From IMG/VR virus record IMGVR_UViG_3300045995_000108, positions 32,001 through 96,000 of that record: 64,000 nt of DNA; one strand, 5' to 3'. Numbering within the stretch: the first letter of the stretch is position 1; each line of letters begins with the position of its first letter. This stretch comes from a virus. This document shows, one piece after another, positions 2,248-63,440 of the stretch. A model generated the notes under the pieces. That model saw only the letters and a list, made by a program, of their open reading frames with translations, was not told the DNA's origin and ran no database searches. A program made the translations under genes and the position numbers.

Positions 2248-5200
2248 ATGAGTGTAAACTTAACAACGGTCAACATAGGAACTGAACCAAATAAGGGTGA
2301 TGGCGATCCAATTCGCACGGCTTTTGACCTCGTCAATAACAATTTCACTGAGGTTAAAAGCAAGATTGAGGGATTATCCAACGGTGTCATCAACAACGCG
2401 GGATACATAGATACTCAAGTTTTAGTTGCCAACACCAGTACAATCAATGCGTTAACGGTCAGCAACATTGCATATTTTAGTAGCAATGTCATTGCGGATA
2501 GCCTTTATGTAAACACTGCGATCACTGCTAATACAGTATCAAGCATTGGAAACATTACAGTAGGCGATAGCCTAAACGTAACTAATGATGTGATTATTAA
2601 TGGTAGCTTAACCGTGTTAGGCGCAGCGTCAGTAATCAGCTCTACTGATTTAACAGTACATGATTCGTTAATATCGCTGCATACTCCGTCCACTGGTACA
2701 CTAACGTCAGACGACACCAAAGATATAGGTGTATTATTTAATTACTACAAAAGTGGTGCAACAAATGCAGCATTAATATGGTCTAATACCACTGGGTCAT
2801 TGGAGTATTATTCTGAAGGCACGCAAGCATCAGGTAGAATCACTGGTGTGTACGGAGATATAAAGGCTGGTAGCTTTTTTGCAGCCAATACAAGTGCAAA
2901 CTCCATTGGAACAAATGGCGGAATAGCAGCGGCAGGCACAATAACAGCAACTTCATTAGTCAGTACAGATATTTCAGTGACTAACGCTGCAATTTCTGGA
3001 AACTTGACAATAGCAGTTCCATTGGCTGGTAAAAATATTCATGGAAGTTTATACTTAACTGGTACTGACAACGTATACATTAACGGTGAACCAGTAACTA
3101 CTTCTATGTCGCACTTTACTGGCGGCATGGTTCCTAACTTAGCATGGTTTGTTAACGGAGTAACGGCAAACAGTCAAGTTACCTCTACTAGCACTACAAG
3201 TGGTGCGATGACAGTAGACGGCGGGTTAGGTGTTACTGGTAACATCTACGCCGGCGCTATCCGTAATACTCCTATATCAGGTAGCACGGGTGACTTCACT
3301 GCATTGTCAGTAGCATCTACTTTTGCTGCATCATCTGTGTCGTTCTTGGGTGGCTACATTACTAACGTCCACGGCGATGCTACTCAATGGGCGGTAACTG
3401 ATTTTGTTTCTGGTAATGTTAAAATTACTGGCGGAACTATTACTGGTTTGACTGGCTTAGGTGCAGCCAATGCTACTATTACTTCTGGTACTATCACAGG
3501 CTTATCTAACTTAACATCCAGTGCAGCAACTATTACTTCAGGGTCATTGACAGGGCTGTCACAAGTTACAACAACTAACTTGACATCTGCTAATGGACTA
3601 GTAACCAATGCAAATGGTGCACGTATTGCTGGTGACTTCACTAACGCAACAGTAGCTAACAGGTTGATGTTCCAAACAACTGTTACTAACGGTGCGACTA
3701 ACATATCCGCTATCCCACGTGGTACTATCGTGACAACGGCGTTAACGGGTGCGTTTCGCATTGAGGATGCATCATCAATCATAACAGGCAATGGGTCAAG
3801 TGGTGGAATAGAGTTATATCAAGATACAGAACTTCGCTTAGTTTCCTCAACTCGTGGTACTGGTACGTATTTACCAATAACTGTGCACACGAACGGCAGC
3901 AAAGCTGCTCAATTCTCCACTGGTCATGATTTTACAGTTTACAATACTGGCGGCACTGCTGGTGTTATCACGCTGGGTGCAAATGGTGTTGTAACAGCAA
4001 CATCATTTACTGGGCGTTTAATAGGTCTTGCAGATACTGCGACCTTGGCAAACGGCGTAACTTGGGGTAATGTAACAAGTAAGCCAACATTTGCGACTGT
4101 GGCGACTAGCGGTTTGTACACTGATCTAAGTGGCACCCCAATTATTCCAGCAGCACAAGTGCAGTCCGACTGGACAGCAGCATCTGGTGTTACAGCTATA
4201 CTCAACAAACCATCCCTGGCGGCAGTAGCTACCAGTGGTTCATACACTGACTTAACTAGCAAGCCAACTATTCCTACTGTTCCTACAGCAGTGTCGGCGT
4301 TTACAAATGATTCAGGTTACATTACTTCTGCGACCCTTGGTACGTATGGTGTAAGTCAAATTATCGCTGGCACGAATATTGTTATCAGTCCTGCTGGTGG
4401 CACAGGCAATGTAACTATCAGCACTACTGCAACAGCTAATGCATCGTTATTAACAAGTAGCACATTATCGTCTAATGTAACTGCATCGTCATTAACCAGT
4501 GTTGGCACATTAACCAGCTTAACGACAAGTGGCAGTATTACAGTTGGCGGTAACTTGATTGTTAACGGTACAACTACCACAATTAATGCAACGACATTAG
4601 ACGTAGCAGACTTAAATATTACTGTAGCTAAGAATGCGGCGACAGCGGCGGCAGCGAATGGTGCTGGCATTACAGTTGCAGGTTCCAACGCAACGTTTAC
4701 TTATACAAGTGCAGATGATCGCTGGAACGCAAACAAGACTATTAACGGTACAATTACTAATGCTACACTAGCAGCTGGTGTAGATTGGGCCAATGTAACT
4801 AGCAAGCCAACTATTCCAGCGGCACAAGTGCAAACTGATTGGAATGCTGTATCTGGTTTAGGTGTATTACTAAACAAGCCAACACTAGCAACAGTCGCAA
4901 CAAGTGGGTCATACATTGACTTAACTAACAAGCCAACTATTCCAGCAGCACAGGTACAAACTGATTGGAATGCTGTATCTGGTTTAGGTGTATTACTAAA
5001 CAAGCCAACTATTCCAGCAGCACAAGTACAGTCCGATTGGAATGCAGTGTCTGGCATTGGTGTCATCCTTAATAAGCCAACATCGCTACCTGGTGCAAAG
5101 TATACAGAAAGTGCATCCGCACCAAGCGGTCCAACAGCAGGCGATCGTTGGTATAATACTGCATCTGACATCTTGTATCAATACATTGGTACATCGTGGG

Positions 5201-31292: not shown

Positions 31293-31329
31293 CCGAAAAT
31301 CCATAAATACGGTATCAAGGAGATATCGT

Positions 31330-36894: not shown

Positions 36895-36942
36895 TCGCTG
36901 CTTTCGCTCCCAATAAATACTACTATAACTAAGGAGCCTAAC

Positions 36943-38839: not shown

Positions 38840-38891
38840 GTTAACTATATAGCTTAATCCGTGCTAAATACTGCAATAAGACGGAATTTCA

Positions 38892-56600: not shown

Positions 56601-57203
56601 ATGTCCTTCGACCTAATCCTAAAGTTTGAAAAAGAGTTAGCAGAGTTTACTGGCGCTCCGTATGCAATTATGACAGATTGCTGCACACACGCCATTGAAC
56701 TGTGTCTTCGTTACGAACTACAAGATCGTCGCTACATAGACAAGGTTGTGTTTACTGCGTTTACATACTTGTCCGTGCCAATGACCTTCCGCAAGATAGG
56801 CATTAAGTACGAGCACATTGACTACGATTGGACTGGCGAGTATCCGTTCTATGGCACACGTATTTGGGACTCTGCTCGTAGGTTAGAGAAAAACATGTAC
56901 CGCCCACACTCCTTCCAATGTCTGAGCTTTGGACAAGGTAAGCCAATCCAGATTGGGCATGGTGGTGCTATCCTAACTGACGATAAGAATGCGTACACCA
57001 CTATGCTTGCACAACGGTACGACGGTAGAGACCTAACCATATCCCCATGGCACGACCAAAAGGTGTTTAGGGTCGGCTACCATTACAAGCCAGCAATTGA
57101 AGACGCAATGCATGGTTCGGAATTGCTTAAAGCTTATGCTTGCTATCCAGCTAAACCAATGCATGTGATATATCCAGATTTAAGAAAGATAACAATATTA
57201 TGA
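56601..57203 (+). CDS. DegT/DnrJ/StrS-family PLP aminotransferase (short)
   Basis: FEKELAEFTGAPYA...CT.AI, DSA, LSFGQGKPI...GGAILTD. Confidence 0.8.
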   Translation: MSFDLILKFEKELAEFTGAPYAIMTDCCTHAIELCLRYELQDRRYIDKVVFTAFTYLSVPMTFRKIGIKYEHIDYDWTGEYPFYGTRIWDSARRLEKNMYRPHSFQCLSFGQGKPIQIGHGGAILTDDKNAYTTMLAQRYDGRDLTISPWHDQKVFRVGYHYKPAIEDAMHGSELLKAYACYPAKPMHVIYPDLRKITIL

Positions 57204-58150
57204 ACATTTTAGTATTAGGCGCGGGTGGGTTCATTGGATCGCATTTAGTAAAAAGACTCAAAAGTGAAGGTCATTATGTCGTCGGTATGGACTTAAAATA
57301 TCCTGATTTTGACACAACTCACGCAGACGAGTTTATTATCACTGACTTGGCAGATGCAAGATCTCTTGTGTTCCCATACCTTGAGTTTGATGAGGTGTAC
57401 CAACTTGCTGCTGACATGGGCGGAGCGACCTACATATTCACAGGGATAAATGATTCGAACATTATGATGCATAGTGTTCGTATAAATTTAAATGTGCTTG
57501 ACCACTTTAAGGACACAAAAGCAACAATCTTCTATTCGTCATCTGCCTGCATTTACCCAGCACATAACCAGCTTGACCCGTCAGATCCTAATTTGGAAGA
57601 GTCTTCTGCATACCCAGCCAATCCAGATTCTGAATACGGATGGGAAAAACTATTCTCTGAACGGCTGTATCTTGCACATGCAAAAAACCACGGGACTAAG
57701 GTTCGTATTGCACGTTACCACAATGTTTATGGCCCATATGGCACGTTCGAAGGTGGTAAAGAAAAGGCACCTGCTGCAATATGCCGCAAAGTAATTCAAT
57801 CCAACGGTGAGATTGAGATCATTGGTCCAGGATATCAAACACGTTCGTTTTTGTATATTGACGATTGCGTTGATGCAACGATTCAATTAGTACGTAGTGA
57901 TGTTAACTTTCCTATTAACATCGGATCAGAAGAAATGGTATCAATCAACCAATTGGTGGACATTGCATCTGCGGTAGAAGGAAAGCAATTGATTAAAAAG
58001 CATGTATCTGGACCAGTTGGTGTCGCTGGCCGCAATTCTGACAATACGTTAATTGAACATTACTTAGGTTGGGAAAGAAAGAATACGTTGTCAGACGGTA
58101 TCACCAAAACATACAAATGGATTAAATCCGTCATTGACTCCCGCGTCTAA
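57200..58150 (+). CDS. NAD-dependent sugar epimerase (GDP-mannose 3,5-epimerase-like)
   Basis: GAGGFIG, LAADMGG, SSSACIY, YGWEK. Confidence 0.88.
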   Translation: MNILVLGAGGFIGSHLVKRLKSEGHYVVGMDLKYPDFDTTHADEFIITDLADARSLVFPYLEFDEVYQLAADMGGATYIFTGINDSNIMMHSVRINLNVLDHFKDTKATIFYSSSACIYPAHNQLDPSDPNLEESSAYPANPDSEYGWEKLFSERLYLAHAKNHGTKVRIARYHNVYGPYGTFEGGKEKAPAAICRKVIQSNGEIEIIGPGYQTRSFLYIDDCVDATIQLVRSDVNFPINIGSEEMVSINQLVDIASAVEGKQLIKKHVSGPVGVAGRNSDNTLIEHYLGWERKNTLSDGITKTYKWIKSVIDSRV

Positions 58151-58180
58151 ATACAGTACAATAAACAATAGGAACAAAAC

Positions 58181-58879
58181 ATGGATAACAGTAAAAATCT
58201 TTCTCAATTAATCCGCCGCAAAATGCAAGGAAGTGGTAAACGCTTTTGGGCAGGCGACAACATTTCTGAATTCGTTAGCGAAGATGCAAAACAACTTCTG
58301 ATTGACGAAGCTGCTGAAGCATTCGAAGGAGTGCTGGACGCTTTGTTAATTGATCGGGAGAATGATCCTAACAGCAAAGGCACTGCTCGTCGTCTTGCCA
58401 AAATGTACTACAACGAGATCATGTCTGGTCGTTACGATGCACCACCAGACTGCACTGCTTTCCCAAATGACAGCGATGACCGTTATGAAGGAATGTTGGT
58501 TGTTCGTTCAGAATTGAAGTCAATGTGCTCACACCACCACCAGCCCGTTTCTGGCACTGCGTACATTGGTATCATTGCTGCGCAAAAGCTAATTGGCTTG
58601 TCCAAGTATTCACGCATCGCGCAGTGGTGCGCATTGCGCGGCACATTGCAAGAAGAGTTATGCAACGACATCGCAAAAGAAATTGAAAAGGCAACTGGTT
58701 CTGAGAACATTGCAGTTTACATACAGGCCACACATGGATGCTGCGAAAACCGTGGAATAATGGCCCATTCGTCCCTAACACAAACAACTGTGCTCAAAGG
58801 ATCATTTAAAAGCGACCCAGGCACTAAGAAAGAGTTTTTCGACAACATTAATCTACAGCAACAGTTCGCTCCACGATAA
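58181..58879 (+). CDS. folE: GTP cyclohydrolase I
   Basis: SMCSHHH, IGLSK..R, LQEEL, HGC...RG. Confidence 0.95.
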   Translation: MDNSKNLSQLIRRKMQGSGKRFWAGDNISEFVSEDAKQLLIDEAAEAFEGVLDALLIDRENDPNSKGTARRLAKMYYNEIMSGRYDAPPDCTAFPNDSDDRYEGMLVVRSELKSMCSHHHQPVSGTAYIGIIAAQKLIGLSKYSRIAQWCALRGTLQEELCNDIAKEIEKATGSENIAVYIQATHGCCENRGIMAHSSLTQTTVLKGSFKSDPGTKKEFFDNINLQQQFAPR

Positions 58880-58945: not shown

Positions 58946-60187
58946 ATGCGTAAATTAGGTCTTGCACTCGCCATTGCTGCTAGTGCATTTTTGGTGGCTT
59001 GTGGTGGGGGTGGAGGCGGTGGCAGTCCTGCAGCCGTGGCACCAACGCCAGTTTCAGTAACGTACAAAGCGTCTGACTGGAATGCAACAATTGCGTGGTG
59101 GGACGATTCGACAAATTCTGGGCAGACTGATGCCTTTGTTAAAGGGATGATTGACAACATTCTGGCAACGGGTTACAGTGGTGTTACATTTTCCTACAAA
59201 AACCCAATTGATATGTCGACTGGGCATGTGCCAGCTTTTGCCACTACAATGGCAAACAACACGCGAATGTTCGCAATGATGGACTATGCGTATTCAAAAG
59301 GGCTCAAGGTCAATATCAAAGAATATTGGACAATGCCTGACAACAGCAACGTCAACCAGTGGAGTGCAAACGATGCCGCAAATTGGTACGATAGTGCAAC
59401 ACCCAATGCGACAAAACCTTATGCCACTACATTGCTGGCAGACATGGACACACATTTCACAGCACTTGCAAGCGTTGCACAAGCGCACCACGTGTCAATG
59501 ATTATCATGGGGTCAGAAAATGACTTCCTCGCATATAACCAATATCACGCGAATTGGGCAAGTATGGTCTCGCACTTACGTGGCAATGGGTTCACAGGCA
59601 AGCTTACTTACGATGCAATTTGGCAAGGCAAGCAAGGCGAGGCTTTTTACAGTGTCACAGTTTGGGACTTGATGGACAAAGTTTGCTTGTCATTCTTCCC
59701 TGACTTCTCTGGTATGCCGCTTACAAATGTACAGGATGTTGTTGCACGATGGTCTAGCGTTAACCTTGCGCAAGTTACAAGCCCCTACGCTGACTTGAAT
59801 GACCCAAATACCCCATTCCCTAGCTATGTCGCTGAACTACTTGCCATTAGCCAAACTTGGCAAAACAAGGAAATTGTATTTGGTGAAAATGCATACGAGA
59901 ATTCAGCTACTGCGCTGATGAACTGGAACAGTGTGACTCAACTAGTTGCTGGCGGTGTGCAACACGATCCAGTGCAACGTCAATTGGCATTTGAAGCAGA
60001 ACTGATTGTTCTAAAGACTCCAGTAGCGCAAGGCGGACTGAAAGGCGTAGTGACAGGCTTTAACTTGATGGGTTACGATCCTTGGGAATACGGTCCAGGA
60101 CCAATGGCTGTATGGAAAGACTGGGAGCAACTGACGGGTACTACATCAGAAGCTACTCTTAAGACATATTTGCAAGCTGGACTCTAA
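58946..60187 (+). CDS. lipoprotein with TIM-barrel glycoside hydrolase-like domain (GH113-like)
   Basis: Lipobox LVA-C, Gly/Pro linker, MGSEND, FTGKLTY, FGENAY. Confidence 0.65.
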   Translation: MRKLGLALAIAASAFLVACGGGGGGGSPAAVAPTPVSVTYKASDWNATIAWWDDSTNSGQTDAFVKGMIDNILATGYSGVTFSYKNPIDMSTGHVPAFATTMANNTRMFAMMDYAYSKGLKVNIKEYWTMPDNSNVNQWSANDAANWYDSATPNATKPYATTLLADMDTHFTALASVAQAHHVSMIIMGSENDFLAYNQYHANWASMVSHLRGNGFTGKLTYDAIWQGKQGEAFYSVTVWDLMDKVCLSFFPDFSGMPLTNVQDVVARWSSVNLAQVTSPYADLNDPNTPFPSYVAELLAISQTWQNKEIVFGENAYENSATALMNWNSVTQLVAGGVQHDPVQRQLAFEAELIVLKTPVAQGGLKGVVTGFNLMGYDPWEYGPGPMAVWKDWEQLTGTTSEATLKTYLQAGL

Positions 60188-60514
60188 ATGATAGCGTTAC
60201 CTCCCGGTTGCACTGTCCCGTACACCGTCCAAATCACAGTTAGTGCACTAACTGACGAGATGATGGAATGGTACGAGATGGTAGGCGGGGAGGTTTCGTC
60301 TGTTAACACCAATACGTACAATCGCGCAAATAAAGAGATCGTAAATAAGCTAGTGCGTTACAATAACTCAAAATGGTGCCATCGTTTTATAGATGGTACA
60401 GGCAATGTGAGATTGAACTTTAGCGGAGAGGACGCTTATGTTGCAAGCGTCTTCCTCATTAAGTTTAACGACGAAATTGTGAATCATAACTTTCGCGAGC
60501 ATGAGTACAAATGA
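60188..60514 (+). CDS. hypothetical phage protein
   Basis: 108-aa ORF. Confidence 0.55.
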   Translation: MIALPPGCTVPYTVQITVSALTDEMMEWYEMVGGEVSSVNTNTYNRANKEIVNKLVRYNNSKWCHRFIDGTGNVRLNFSGEDAYVASVFLIKFNDEIVNHNFREHEYK

Positions 60515-60525
60515 TAAATAAAAGT

Positions 60526-60569
60526 AGCGGTCTTGGCATTCACCCCGCTTGCATAAATTCTGTGGCCAT
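60526..60569 (+). ncRNA. candidate preQ1-I-like pseudoknot riboswitch
   Basis: P1 AGCGG/CCGCT, loop TCTTGGCATTCACC, ATAAA linker, P2 TGGC/GCCA; upstream of denV-queD. Confidence 0.5.
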
Positions 60570-60595
60570 GTTACAATACAACATAGGTAATCACA

Positions 60596-60997
60596 GTGAC
60601 TCGCATAAACTCTAATCTTGACCCAAAATCTCTCAAGCGTATGCATTTGGTTGCAGAGCTGCGAGAGATCACAATGGTCCCGGCTGCACTACGCCGTTCT
60701 TTGCGCACTATACAACCGCAAACCATCAAACAGAGTATTCCCAAGCAGTTTACTTTGAACGCAGGCCACGTTAAATTCTTTTACGATAAACTTGGATTCT
60801 TGCAAAAACGGTTCAACCGTTTAGCAGATGAAATGGTGCGCAGAGGTTATTCCCCTGATCGCAGTCGCATCAAAGCATTTGACGGATTTGACAGAATGTG
60901 GTATAATGATTGGGATAGCACAGACACTGATGACAAAATTGTTGTAGAACGCATTAACTTCCGTATCTCACAAAAACCACATTTATACAAGGATTAA
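60596..60997 (+). CDS. denV: pyrimidine-dimer DNA glycosylase (endonuclease V)
   Basis: MTRIN, HLVAELRE, FTLNAGHVKFFYDKL..L.KR...L..EM..RGY. Confidence 0.92.
   Translation: MTRINSNLDPKSLKRMHLVAELREITMVPAALRRSLRTIQPQTIKQSIPKQFTLNAGHVKFFYDKLGFLQKRFNRLADEMVRRGYSPDRSRIKAFDGFDRMWYNDWDSTDTDDKIVVERINFRISQKPHLYKD
60879..60907 (+). promoter_or_regulatory. near-consensus sigma70 promoter inside denV, facing queD
   Basis: TTGACG-17-TATAAT with extended -10 TG. Confidence 0.6.
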
Positions 60998-60998
60998 C

Positions 60999-61496
60999 AT
61001 GACACCCGTTTCTTACAAATTCACTTCCACAAAAGAATACATTGACGCTTTCCCATGTGCATATCGCCAATGGCGATCTGACTCGCACTGCAACCTGATT
61101 CACGGCTACTCGTTTAGCATGAAGTTCTACTTTGGCACAAACGACCTCGACGCACGTAACTGGGCAGCTGACTACGGTGGACTAAAAGAGCTTAAGAAGA
61201 TTTTGGAATCGCAATTTGACCATACTCTCATCGTGGCGCAAGATGATCCAGATATGGAAACATTCAAGTTGCTGCAAGACAAAGGCATGGCTAAGATTGT
61301 TGTGCTGCCTGCACTTGGTTGTGAAGCACTTGCTGACATGCTGTACAAGTATGTGAACGGTGTTTACATTCCGGAAATGTGGGGAGAAGGTGAAGCAAAG
61401 CGTCTTTGGTGCTACAAAGTGGAAGTTCGCGAGACACAAGCTAATATGGCTTATCGTGAGGGTCACCGTGAGTGGAACGAGGACTTGCTTGCATAA
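60999..61496 (+). CDS. queD: 6-carboxytetrahydropterin synthase
   Basis: CNLIHGYS, DYGGLK, FDHT, GCE, VRET. Confidence 0.9.
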   Translation: MTPVSYKFTSTKEYIDAFPCAYRQWRSDSHCNLIHGYSFSMKFYFGTNDLDARNWAADYGGLKELKKILESQFDHTLIVAQDDPDMETFKLLQDKGMAKIVVLPALGCEALADMLYKYVNGVYIPEMWGEGEAKRLWCYKVEVRETQANMAYREGHREWNEDLLA

Positions 61497-62558: not shown

Positions 62559-63440
62559 ATTTTTGGAACTAATGAAATTATCGGCAAGAAATTTTTCCGG
62601 GACGCACCAGCAAACAGCTTGTTTGTGACAAGTATGTTCTTCACGTTGCAAGGTGAAGGTCCATACGCTGGTATGCCTGCGTTATTCATCCGTCTTGCAA
62701 AGTGCAACCTTGATTGCAGCTTCTGTGACACATTCTTTGACGATGGCGATTGGATGACGTTTGACGAGATCGACGAGAAAGTGATTGAAACCATTTCCCG
62801 TTACTGGACTGATAAAAACGAAGAAGTGCCAGACTGGGCAATTAGCCACAAAACATTCGGCCCAGTACATCCTGGTGTTGTGCTTGTTATGACTGGTGGT
62901 GAACCATTACTCCAAGAAAACATCTCCCTGTTTATGACTGGTATGTTGCCAATCTTCAAAGCTGTGCAAGTCGAAAGCAACGGCATTCCTGACACCGTAG
63001 TACCAGCTGGCGTTACGCTGGTCTGTTCACCCAAGTGTATGGAAAAGAACGGTGTTGCTACTAAGTATTTCTCGCCATCCAAAACTATTTTGGACCGTGC
63101 AGACTGTCTCAAGTTTGTAATGAGCGCAGATGAAGGCAGTCCTTACCACAGTGTACCAGAATGGGCACACGAGTGGAAAGAACGGACCGGCAAAGATATC
63201 TATTGCAGCCCGATGAACATTTACAATTCTTTCCCGCAGCAAATCAAATTGCTACGAGCAGAGAAGGGTGTTATTACGATGGCAGAGCGTTCCACAGTTG
63301 ACGAGGTCATCTCGTGGTGGGAACCGGGATTGCTTGACATGGCAAAGAACGAAGCGAACCATCGTTATGTTGGGCAATACTGTATGCAGCATGGATTCAA
63401 GATGCAGATGCAGATGCACTTGTTTGCGAGTTTAGCATAA
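62559..63440 (+). CDS. queE: 7-carboxy-7-deazaguanine synthase (radical SAM), probable ATT start
   Basis: FFTLQGEG, FIRLAKCNLDCSFCDT, TGGEP, ESNG, CSPK, QMH; SD AGGAG 7 nt before in-frame ATT. Confidence 0.92.
   Translation: MFGTNEIIGKKFFRDAPANSLFVTSMFFTLQGEGPYAGMPALFIRLAKCNLDCSFCDTFFDDGDWMTFDEIDEKVIETISRYWTDKNEEVPDWAISHKTFGPVHPGVVLVMTGGEPLLQENISLFMTGMLPIFKAVQVESNGIPDTVVPAGVTLVCSPKCMEKNGVATKYFSPSKTILDRADCLKFVMSADEGSPYHSVPEWAHEWKERTGKDIYCSPMNIYNSFPQQIKLLRAEKGVITMAERSTVDEVISWWEPGLLDMAKNEANHRYVGQYCMQHGFKMQMQMHLFASLA

Follow-up and report, generated by a model that had tools for sequence, protein, structure and literature searches.

Riboswitches are very rare in phages, and it has been speculated in a survey of 2017 that phages may use undiscovered classes (PMC5473149). 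Phage-borne riboswitches that have been described include c-di-GMP-I riboswitches in prophages of C. difficile and glutamine aptamers in cyanophages (PMC5473149). The preQ1-I riboswitch folds into a small H-type pseudoknot, and the G in the pair that closes helix P1 is conserved. Its ligand pairs with a cytosine that immediately precedes the P1 3' strand and that itself comes after U or A (PMC11625349).

The element described here was found in the window, which is the whole stretch of 64,000 nt of phage DNA that was analyzed, taken from a 115-kb IMG/VR record. It is a real, covarying and queD-linked pseudoknot of preQ1-I-like design, which lies outside catalogued preQ1-I. A literature search gave no published description of the element. 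Like the phage-borne riboswitches mentioned above, it would be a metabolite-type regulatory RNA in front of an auxiliary metabolic gene. However, the former are rare copies of bacterial classes, while members of the queD-leader family are plentiful in phage contigs and a bacterial counterpart seems to be lacking. The element is abundant in uncultured large phages, tied to enzymes for 7-deazaguanine bases in DNA or tRNA, and absent from Rfam. If it binds a ligand, it would represent a phage-specific riboswitch class and a rare, naturally occurring ON variant of the smallest riboswitch fold known, and would show how phages time the supply of the modified bases that protect their DNA from restriction. 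Specific for the window is that the UV-repair gene denV appears to have slipped under the control of the pseudoknot and that a putative promoter lies inside the expression platform. Further traits of the window are a longer L3 and an extended masking helix.

The pseudoknot and its gene neighbourhood

The pseudoknot is located in a short intergenic gap (Table 1). All strings quoted in the earlier note (AGCGG, the loop, CCGCU, UGCAUAAAUUCUGUG and a GCCA complementary to UGGC) were found when read from the sequence. Together they make up an H-type pseudoknot, P1 plus a loop-to-tail P2, and its existence was confirmed: it is conserved, covarying and tied to queD in phages. P1 was claimed to follow directly after the TAAATA box, which is incorrect, as 5 nt (AAAGT) separate the box from the stem.

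Table 1 Features of the pseudoknot locus (positions are those of the window)
Feature	Position	Strand	Remarks
FolE	58181-58879		Present near the pseudoknot
108-aa ORF	60188-60514	+	Unknown family; TGA stop at 60512-60514
Intergenic gap holding the pseudoknot	60515-60595	+	81 nt, between the 108-aa ORF and denV
TAAATA box	60515-60520	+	Candidate phage-type -10; 5 nt upstream of P1
P1 5' strand, AGCGG	60526-60530	+	Pairs with 60545-60549
P1 loop, UCUUGGCAUUCACC	60531-60544	+	14 nt, read from the sequence
L1, UCU	60531-60533	+	C60532 and U60533 invariant (columns 9-10 100% conserved, 99 relatives)
P2 5' strand, UGGC	60534-60537	+	Within the P1 loop; duplex with GCCA 60565-60568, -6.4 kcal/mol
L2, AUUCACC	60538-60544	+	C60544 invariant (column 26, 100% C)
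P1 3' strand, CCGCU	60545-60549	+	Pairs with 60526-60530
Putative embedded sigma-70-type promoter	60549-60577	+	TTGCAT 60549-60554, 17 nt, TACAAT 60572-60577; TGT before the -10
L3, UGCAUAAAUUCUGUG	60550-60564	+	15 nt; conserved A60553, A60555, A60557 and UC-G 60559-60562
P3, predicted sequestering hairpin	60560-60596	+	60560-60572 with 60580-60596; 13 bp, one bulge, one 3-nt internal loop
P2 3' strand, GCCA	60565-60568	+	Also contributes to the 5' arm of P3
Shine-Dalgarno AGGU for denV	60585-60588	+	7 nt before GTG 60596; AGGAG in relatives
denV-like pyrimidine-dimer DNA glycosylase	60596-60997	+	GTG start; Pfam PF03013 E 6.7e-15, PHROG 1183 E 1.8e-35
queD-like 6-pyruvoyl-tetrahydropterin synthase (PTPS)	60999-61496	+	Pfam PF01242 E 4.4e-15
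QueE-like radical-SAM protein	62619-63440		Present near the pseudoknot

The first gene downstream of the pseudoknot in the window is not queD but the denV-like glycosylase gene of 402 nt. Its GTG start aligns to an ATG in relatives, and the queD start codon is found 1 nt past its stop. The placement of the pseudoknot in a deazaguanine pathway region was partly borne out. FolE, the QueD-like PTPS and the QueE-like protein are present; QueC and TGT/DpdA were searched for in the 115-kb record and neither was found. CheckV estimates this record to be 29% complete, so that the phage is probably very large. QueC and TGT/DpdA may either be located in the absent ~70% of the genome, or the pathway ends at CDG or depends on the host.

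Two other open reading frames in this region were noted. Between folE and the 108-aa ORF lies an ORF of 413 aa (58946-60187, + strand) without Pfam or PHROG match. Its language-model features resemble those of GH113/GH53-type TIM-barrel glycoside hydrolases (0.95, 184 shared features), which is taken as a lead only. A 200-aa ORF (56601-57203, + strand) matches the DegT/DnrJ aminotransferase model (360 positions) over positions 26-94 only and adjoins an NAD-dependent epimerase/dehydratase gene (57200-58150). It may be a truncated or split sugar-modification gene.

Conservation, covariation and linkage to queD

Folding energies of the window element were not unusual compared to shuffled sequences (MFE z -1.0 for 60515-60600 and z +1.09 for the 43-nt core). 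The fold being thermodynamically unremarkable, the case for the pseudoknot rests on its relatives. With a first QueD query the best 80 of more than 560 IMG/VR relatives were analyzed. These are 84-94% identical and in many cases lie on contigs of 100-380 kb; some 70 of them carry the element at a distance of 15-80 nt upstream of queD. With two other QueD queries, 72 of 80 and 74 of 80 such loci were obtained, counted as loci with a match to model R2. Altogether about 215 of 240 related phage loci have the pseudoknot a short distance upstream of queD. Model R2 was built from 50 relatives, with the window, L001 and L004 (locus numbers of relatives are given as L001 and so on) left out. It matches 60524-60574 of the window with 31.9 bits and an E value of 7.4e-8 over 64 kb, while the runner-up has an E value of 0.089. 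The pseudoknot is single-copy within the 115-kb record and thus is no generic promoter or terminator cassette.

In the queD-upstream regions of related phages, where the earlier note had proposed to look for covariation, both helices were found to be conserved and covarying. P1 is 99.6% paired in 101 aligned elements. Both partners have changed in three of its five pairs (AU/UA, GC/CG and CG/AU/UA) and the two top G-C pairs never vary. Among the P1 variants are AGCGG/CCGCU, ACCGG/CCGGU, AGAGG/CCUCU, AGUGG/CCACU, UGCGG/CCGCA and AUCGG/CCGAU. The covariation score of P1 and P2 together was 0.276, compared to 0.086 for column shuffles (0/500), and was at most 0.07 when the partner was slid. P2 connects the 3' part of the P1 loop with the tail beyond the 13-nt L3, and more than 15 duplex types were found. 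These include GGCA/UGCC, GGCG/CGCC, GGCU/AGCC, GGUG/CACC, GGGC/GUCC, GAAC/GUUC and GACA/UGUC, the longer GGCAU/AUGCC, GACUU/AAGUC, GACUGU/ACAGUC and AUGGCAU/AUGUCAU, and UGGC/GCCA in the window. In a fixed register (MAFFT or CM alignments) P2 is just 70-72% paired, as members differ by 1 nt in L2 and in helix length, yet all five pairs are doubly changed. In view of these limits an alignment-free swap test was run as well. With 115 unique aptamers the true loop-tail duplex had a mean energy of -5.78 kcal/mol versus -4.73 kcal/mol for swapped partners, and none of 20000 permutations was as good.

Fifteen alignment columns are at least 95% conserved among 99 relatives. They comprise the top of P1, the CU of L1, the C beside the P1 3' strand, one C of P2 and, within L3, three A residues plus UC-GC. 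Of these 15, 14 are kept in the window, the exception being U60563 in place of a 99%-conserved C. Its L3 of 15 nt is 2 nt longer than the usual 13 nt. With this L3 insertion and the C-to-U change it is a low-scoring, divergent member of the family.

In a search of the GenBank phage collection no near match was found, and the distant mode gave queD coding hits only; no annotated relative thus exists. Prokaryotic genomes were scanned with a strict pattern, one genome for each of 185,579 species. This pattern matches 35 of 51 unique elements and does not match the copy in the window. Three true copies were obtained, all on MAG contigs of 4-6 kb. Two of these are followed by queD, and the third contig stops just beyond the start codon. 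An exact pattern, GGTCTTGRCAYTCACCCC, matched L084/L085 among viral contigs, but this GC-rich contig is unrelated and the match was taken as chance.

The position of denV differs between loci. L001, a contig with the 108-aa ORF, is ~77% identical to the window in coding DNA. It matches 72 of 73 bases over 60515-60587, with 60578 as the sole difference. In L001 denV is absent and queD follows immediately after the element, homology ending exactly after CATAGG. The element of the window is located on the sense strand of the queD operon as well, but with denV interposed, as in L003/L004 and L008. Among the loci fetched with denV, L003/L004 have the element before denV-queD and L008 has a decayed form. 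L019 has the element before queD, followed by a GIY-YIG-like gene and then denV.

Some further observations were made on these loci. Between the window and L001 (60404-60587 versus 3111-3297) identity is ~95% over the final ~110 nt of the 108-aa ORF, compared to ~77% for the flanking genes. The tract of high conservation thus reaches upstream of the RNA element, and reflects either a recent recombination tract or extra constraint. In L019 the C-terminus of the GIY-YIG-like ORF (2318-3001), EWNEDLFA, repeats the C-terminus of the adjacent QueD, as would be expected if insertion of a homing endonuclease duplicated the end of its target. The decayed copy of L008 (2945-3003) has a P1 of ~3 bp and has retained P2 (GACA/UGUC) and TTGATA-17-TATAAT. 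The denV ATG of L008 is located just 5 nt past the -10, suggesting that the mRNA is leaderless. In L299/L311/L322 (513-540) and L229 (497-522) the full copy is preceded, ~600 nt upstream, by a second one that is truncated and consists of the P1 hairpin plus loop only (model positions 3-29).

Comparison with preQ1-I riboswitches and PeSL cassettes

The queD leader and preQ1-I share the H-type topology, with a 5-bp P1, an invariant closing G-C pair and a P2 between the P1 loop and the 3' tail. In both, an invariant C precedes the P1 3' strand, conserved A residues are present in L3, and the RNA is a leader of a gene of the queuosine/7-deazaguanine pathway. Both C60544 (column 26) and the pair G60530-C60545 are 100% conserved in 99 relatives. 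The base in front of this C is mostly U, A in some relatives and C in the window. C60544 occupies the position of the specificity cytosine of preQ1-I, and by analogy it may contact a ligand.

Clear differences are found as well. The L3 of preQ1-I consists of about 6-8 A-rich nucleotides, whereas that of the queD leader has 13-15 nt with an added invariant UCUG. Its L1 is N-C-U-U followed by 0-8 variable bases, instead of UU after P1, and its P2 of 4-7 bp is a further difference. PreQ1-I is an OFF switch in which P2 occludes the Shine-Dalgarno sequence or favours a terminator, whereas the queD leader is predicted to be ON and is not followed by a terminator. Furthermore, the strict-pattern prokaryote scan gave three copies, on short MAG contigs, while the others are from phage contigs. 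The Rfam comparison pointed in the same direction. Rfam 15 gave no match for the whole window at gathering thresholds, which is 39 bits for RF00522, and nothing relevant, RF00522 included, at E<=10 on 60300-60800. Membership of preQ1-I was not supported: at E<=10 neither RF00522 nor any other Rfam family matched the window, the 115-kb record (control genomes do respond to RF00522) or 106-nt cut-outs of L141 and L117. RF00522 also found nothing at E<=10 in 14 relatives. The idea of a preQ1-I variant with a longer L3 thus holds for the pseudoknot and for the L3, but not for membership of preQ1-I. In view of the missing RF00522 score, the longer L3, the other L1 and the predicted opposite wiring, the element was not filed as a member of that class. 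It would nevertheless work in a similar manner to preQ1-I, from which it may have descended.

PeSL cassettes are repeated many times per genome. They are said to have been described from T4-type phages, as promoter-early stem-loops, by Arbiol et al. in 2010. The queD leader resembles a PeSL in that a hairpin abuts a sigma-70-type early promoter at the junction of gene modules, and in that denV is present or absent exactly at its 3' edge (window versus L001). Unlike a PeSL it is a single-copy, covarying pseudoknot tied to one gene, and many relatives lack the internal promoter. A mobile hairpin-plus-promoter cassette of the PeSL type was ruled out by the single copy in the 115-kb record and the tie to queD.

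Masking hairpin, promoters and mode of control

The 5' arm of the predicted hairpin P3 is formed by the end of L3 and the P2 3' strand; the Shine-Dalgarno sequence and the first base of the GTG start codon lie in its 3' arm. In MFE and partition function predictions the unpaired probability was 0.00 for G60586 and G60587 and 0.01 for 60596. The Shine-Dalgarno sequence was freed once the pseudoknot region was blocked in the fold prediction. RNAalifold predicted an equivalent P3 for 31 A-type relatives, CCUAUG-loop-CAUAGG(AG), with two C's shared with P2. P3 variants changed on both sides are CCUAUA/UAUAGG (L241, L198) and CCUUAUU/AAUAAGG (L173), but covariation is thin since P3 in A-type relatives is near-invariant with mostly G-U changes. 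For B-type leaders RNAalifold gave no consensus anti-Shine-Dalgarno hairpin. In single-sequence folds of these leaders the start codon and the codon after it are paired to the P2 3' strand itself, and the masking helices co-vary (UGCCAUUG/CAAUGGCA, UGUCAUC/GGUGACA and GUCAUC/GAUGAC). The P2 3' strand overlaps the anti-Shine-Dalgarno or anti-start strand and not the Shine-Dalgarno sequence. P2 and the masking helix are thus mutually exclusive in the A- and B-type designs, and a stabilized knot should open the ribosome site. The fold predictions therefore argue for a switch in the ON direction. The ~13-bp hairpin is far more stable than P2, so that switching would need to occur during transcription.

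Promoter-like sequences are found on both sides of P1. The TAAATA box comes after the TGA stop of the preceding ORF and hence is not the stop codon itself. It is a candidate phage-type promoter with a start that would lie at about the first base of P1. TAAATA/TAAGTA or sigma-70-type TATAAT/TATACT occurs 3-10 nt upstream of P1 in most of 51 unique relatives. In its own genome TAAATA is 3.6-fold enriched in intergenic DNA, with 15 copies versus 4.2 expected by length. B-type relatives (L094, L098, L102, L129, L141, L155, L166 and others) have a strong TTGACC-16/17-TATAAT ending 6-8 nt before P1, with which the RNA would start at the stem. The TTGCAT-17-TACAAT inside the window element, to which the earlier note had drawn attention as a caveat, is indeed present. 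It scores 8/12 plus TGn (extended -10), has an expected start near 60584 and keeps the 17-nt spacing even though L3 is 2 nt longer. It also fits a set in its own genome of 15 TTGMHW-17-TAYAAT sites, all on the + strand and 13 with TACAAT, which judged by their sequences are probably the early promoter set of the phage. At the same fixed place a promoter match with TGn and at least 9/12 occurs in 81 of 93 unique A-type leaders, versus 3 of 43 B-type or other leaders. In A-type leaders the -35 begins at the last P1 base and the -10 lies in the hairpin loop, with T1, A2 and T6 of the -10 kept and varying middle positions. A transcript from ~60584 is predicted to be unstructured (-0.4 kcal/mol). 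The embedded promoter is probably genuine and would yield a bypass transcript, but it cannot account for P1, P2, the invariant loop bases and the B-type leaders. A sigma-54 promoter reading of TGGCA...TTGCA was rejected on its GG-to-GC spacing, 14 and not 10. An intrinsic terminator for the upstream ORF was rejected as well (no U-tract, a 14-nt loop and a silent terminator scan).

The evidence leans, on balance, towards 60526-60596 being a conserved cis-acting leader RNA of the queD operon, a pseudoknot switch that most likely has a ligand. The knot (60526-60530/60545-60549 plus 60534-60537/60565-60568) would compete with hairpin 60560-60572/60580-60596, in which both the Shine-Dalgarno sequence and the start codon are hidden. 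Once folded, and most likely stabilized by a small ligand, the knot would free the ribosome site and turn denV translation ON. Translation of queD would follow that of denV, making denV the directly controlled gene here, with queD behind it. Long transcripts, from the TAAATA box or from upstream read-through, would carry the switch, whereas the embedded promoter would give a short, unregulated leader that bypasses it. Both ligand binding and the activity of the two promoters are put forward here as parts of the model. Against this reading, the embedded promoter alone could explain conservation of the 3' half in A-type elements, and an ON switch would be unusual for a biosynthetic gene if the ligand is the product of the pathway. 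More tentatively, and with somewhat less than even confidence, the leader may constitute a new, essentially phage-only riboswitch class, either derived from preQ1-I or convergent. It would then sense a purine or 7-deazapurine metabolite other than, or additional to, preQ1 and act as an ON switch, and in many members, that of the window among them, the early host-type promoter in the expression platform would bypass the switch at one stage of infection. That it is an ordinary, divergent preQ1-I riboswitch, binding preQ1 and repressing the operon as in bacteria, is very unlikely. The topology, P1 length, closing G-C pair and specificity C are the same, the P1 3' strand of relatives comes after UC or AC (CC in the window) as in types I-III, and the gene belongs to the same pathway. 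However, RF00522 finds nothing at E<=10 in window, genome or relatives with a working control search, L3 and L1 deviate as described above, and the P2 3' strand overlaps the anti-Shine-Dalgarno or anti-start strand instead of the Shine-Dalgarno sequence. The phage may not even make preQ1, as no QueC was found in the 115-kb record.

A structured leader without small-molecule ligand is considered rather unlikely, though less so than an ordinary preQ1-I riboswitch. It could be a co-transcriptional folding timer, a thermosensor for denV-queD translation, or a site to which a phage or host protein binds, for instance in autoregulation by a pathway enzyme. The structural evidence is equally compatible with a protein-bound or ligand-free pseudoknot, the known riboswitch models give no match, and the invariant single-stranded bases (L1 CU, L3 UC-G) could be protein contacts. 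However, the layout mirrors the features with which preQ1-I holds its ligand (5-bp P1, closing G-C, the C and an A-rich L3). The element is also tied to one metabolic gene, queD, across very different neighbourhoods, a pattern typical of metabolite sensing. Most improbable is that the locus holds DNA signals only, a sigma-70 promoter for denV-queD plus an incidental or terminator-like hairpin, with no functional RNA. The fit to the set of 15 plus-strand sites, the fixed position in A-type relatives, where T1, A2 and T6 are kept as in a genuine -10, and the spacing kept in the window all favour a promoter, and L008 has retained it with a P1 decayed to 3 bp. However, B-type leaders, which largely lack this promoter and have one upstream of P1, have retained P1, P2 and the invariant bases, and the P1/P2 covariation is not accounted for by a promoter. 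Furthermore, no U-tract follows P1, the terminator scan is empty at the site, the element is single-copy in its genome, and P3 persists in leaders with a spoiled or absent -10 (L241, L198, L279, L304 and L173).

Some minor observations concern promoter-like sequences elsewhere in the 115-kb record (G000). TACAAT is found 88 times on the + strand and 33 times on the - strand. Examples of TTGMHW-17-TAYAAT sites are those at 58134-58162, 16417, 23606 and 51094 of the window, and none is located on the - strand. TAAATA(c) is often found ~20-25 nt before start codons (2200-2247, 31293-31329, 36895-36930, 38840-38891 and 60515-60520), and this recurrent box is reminiscent of the T4 late promoter, TATAAATA.
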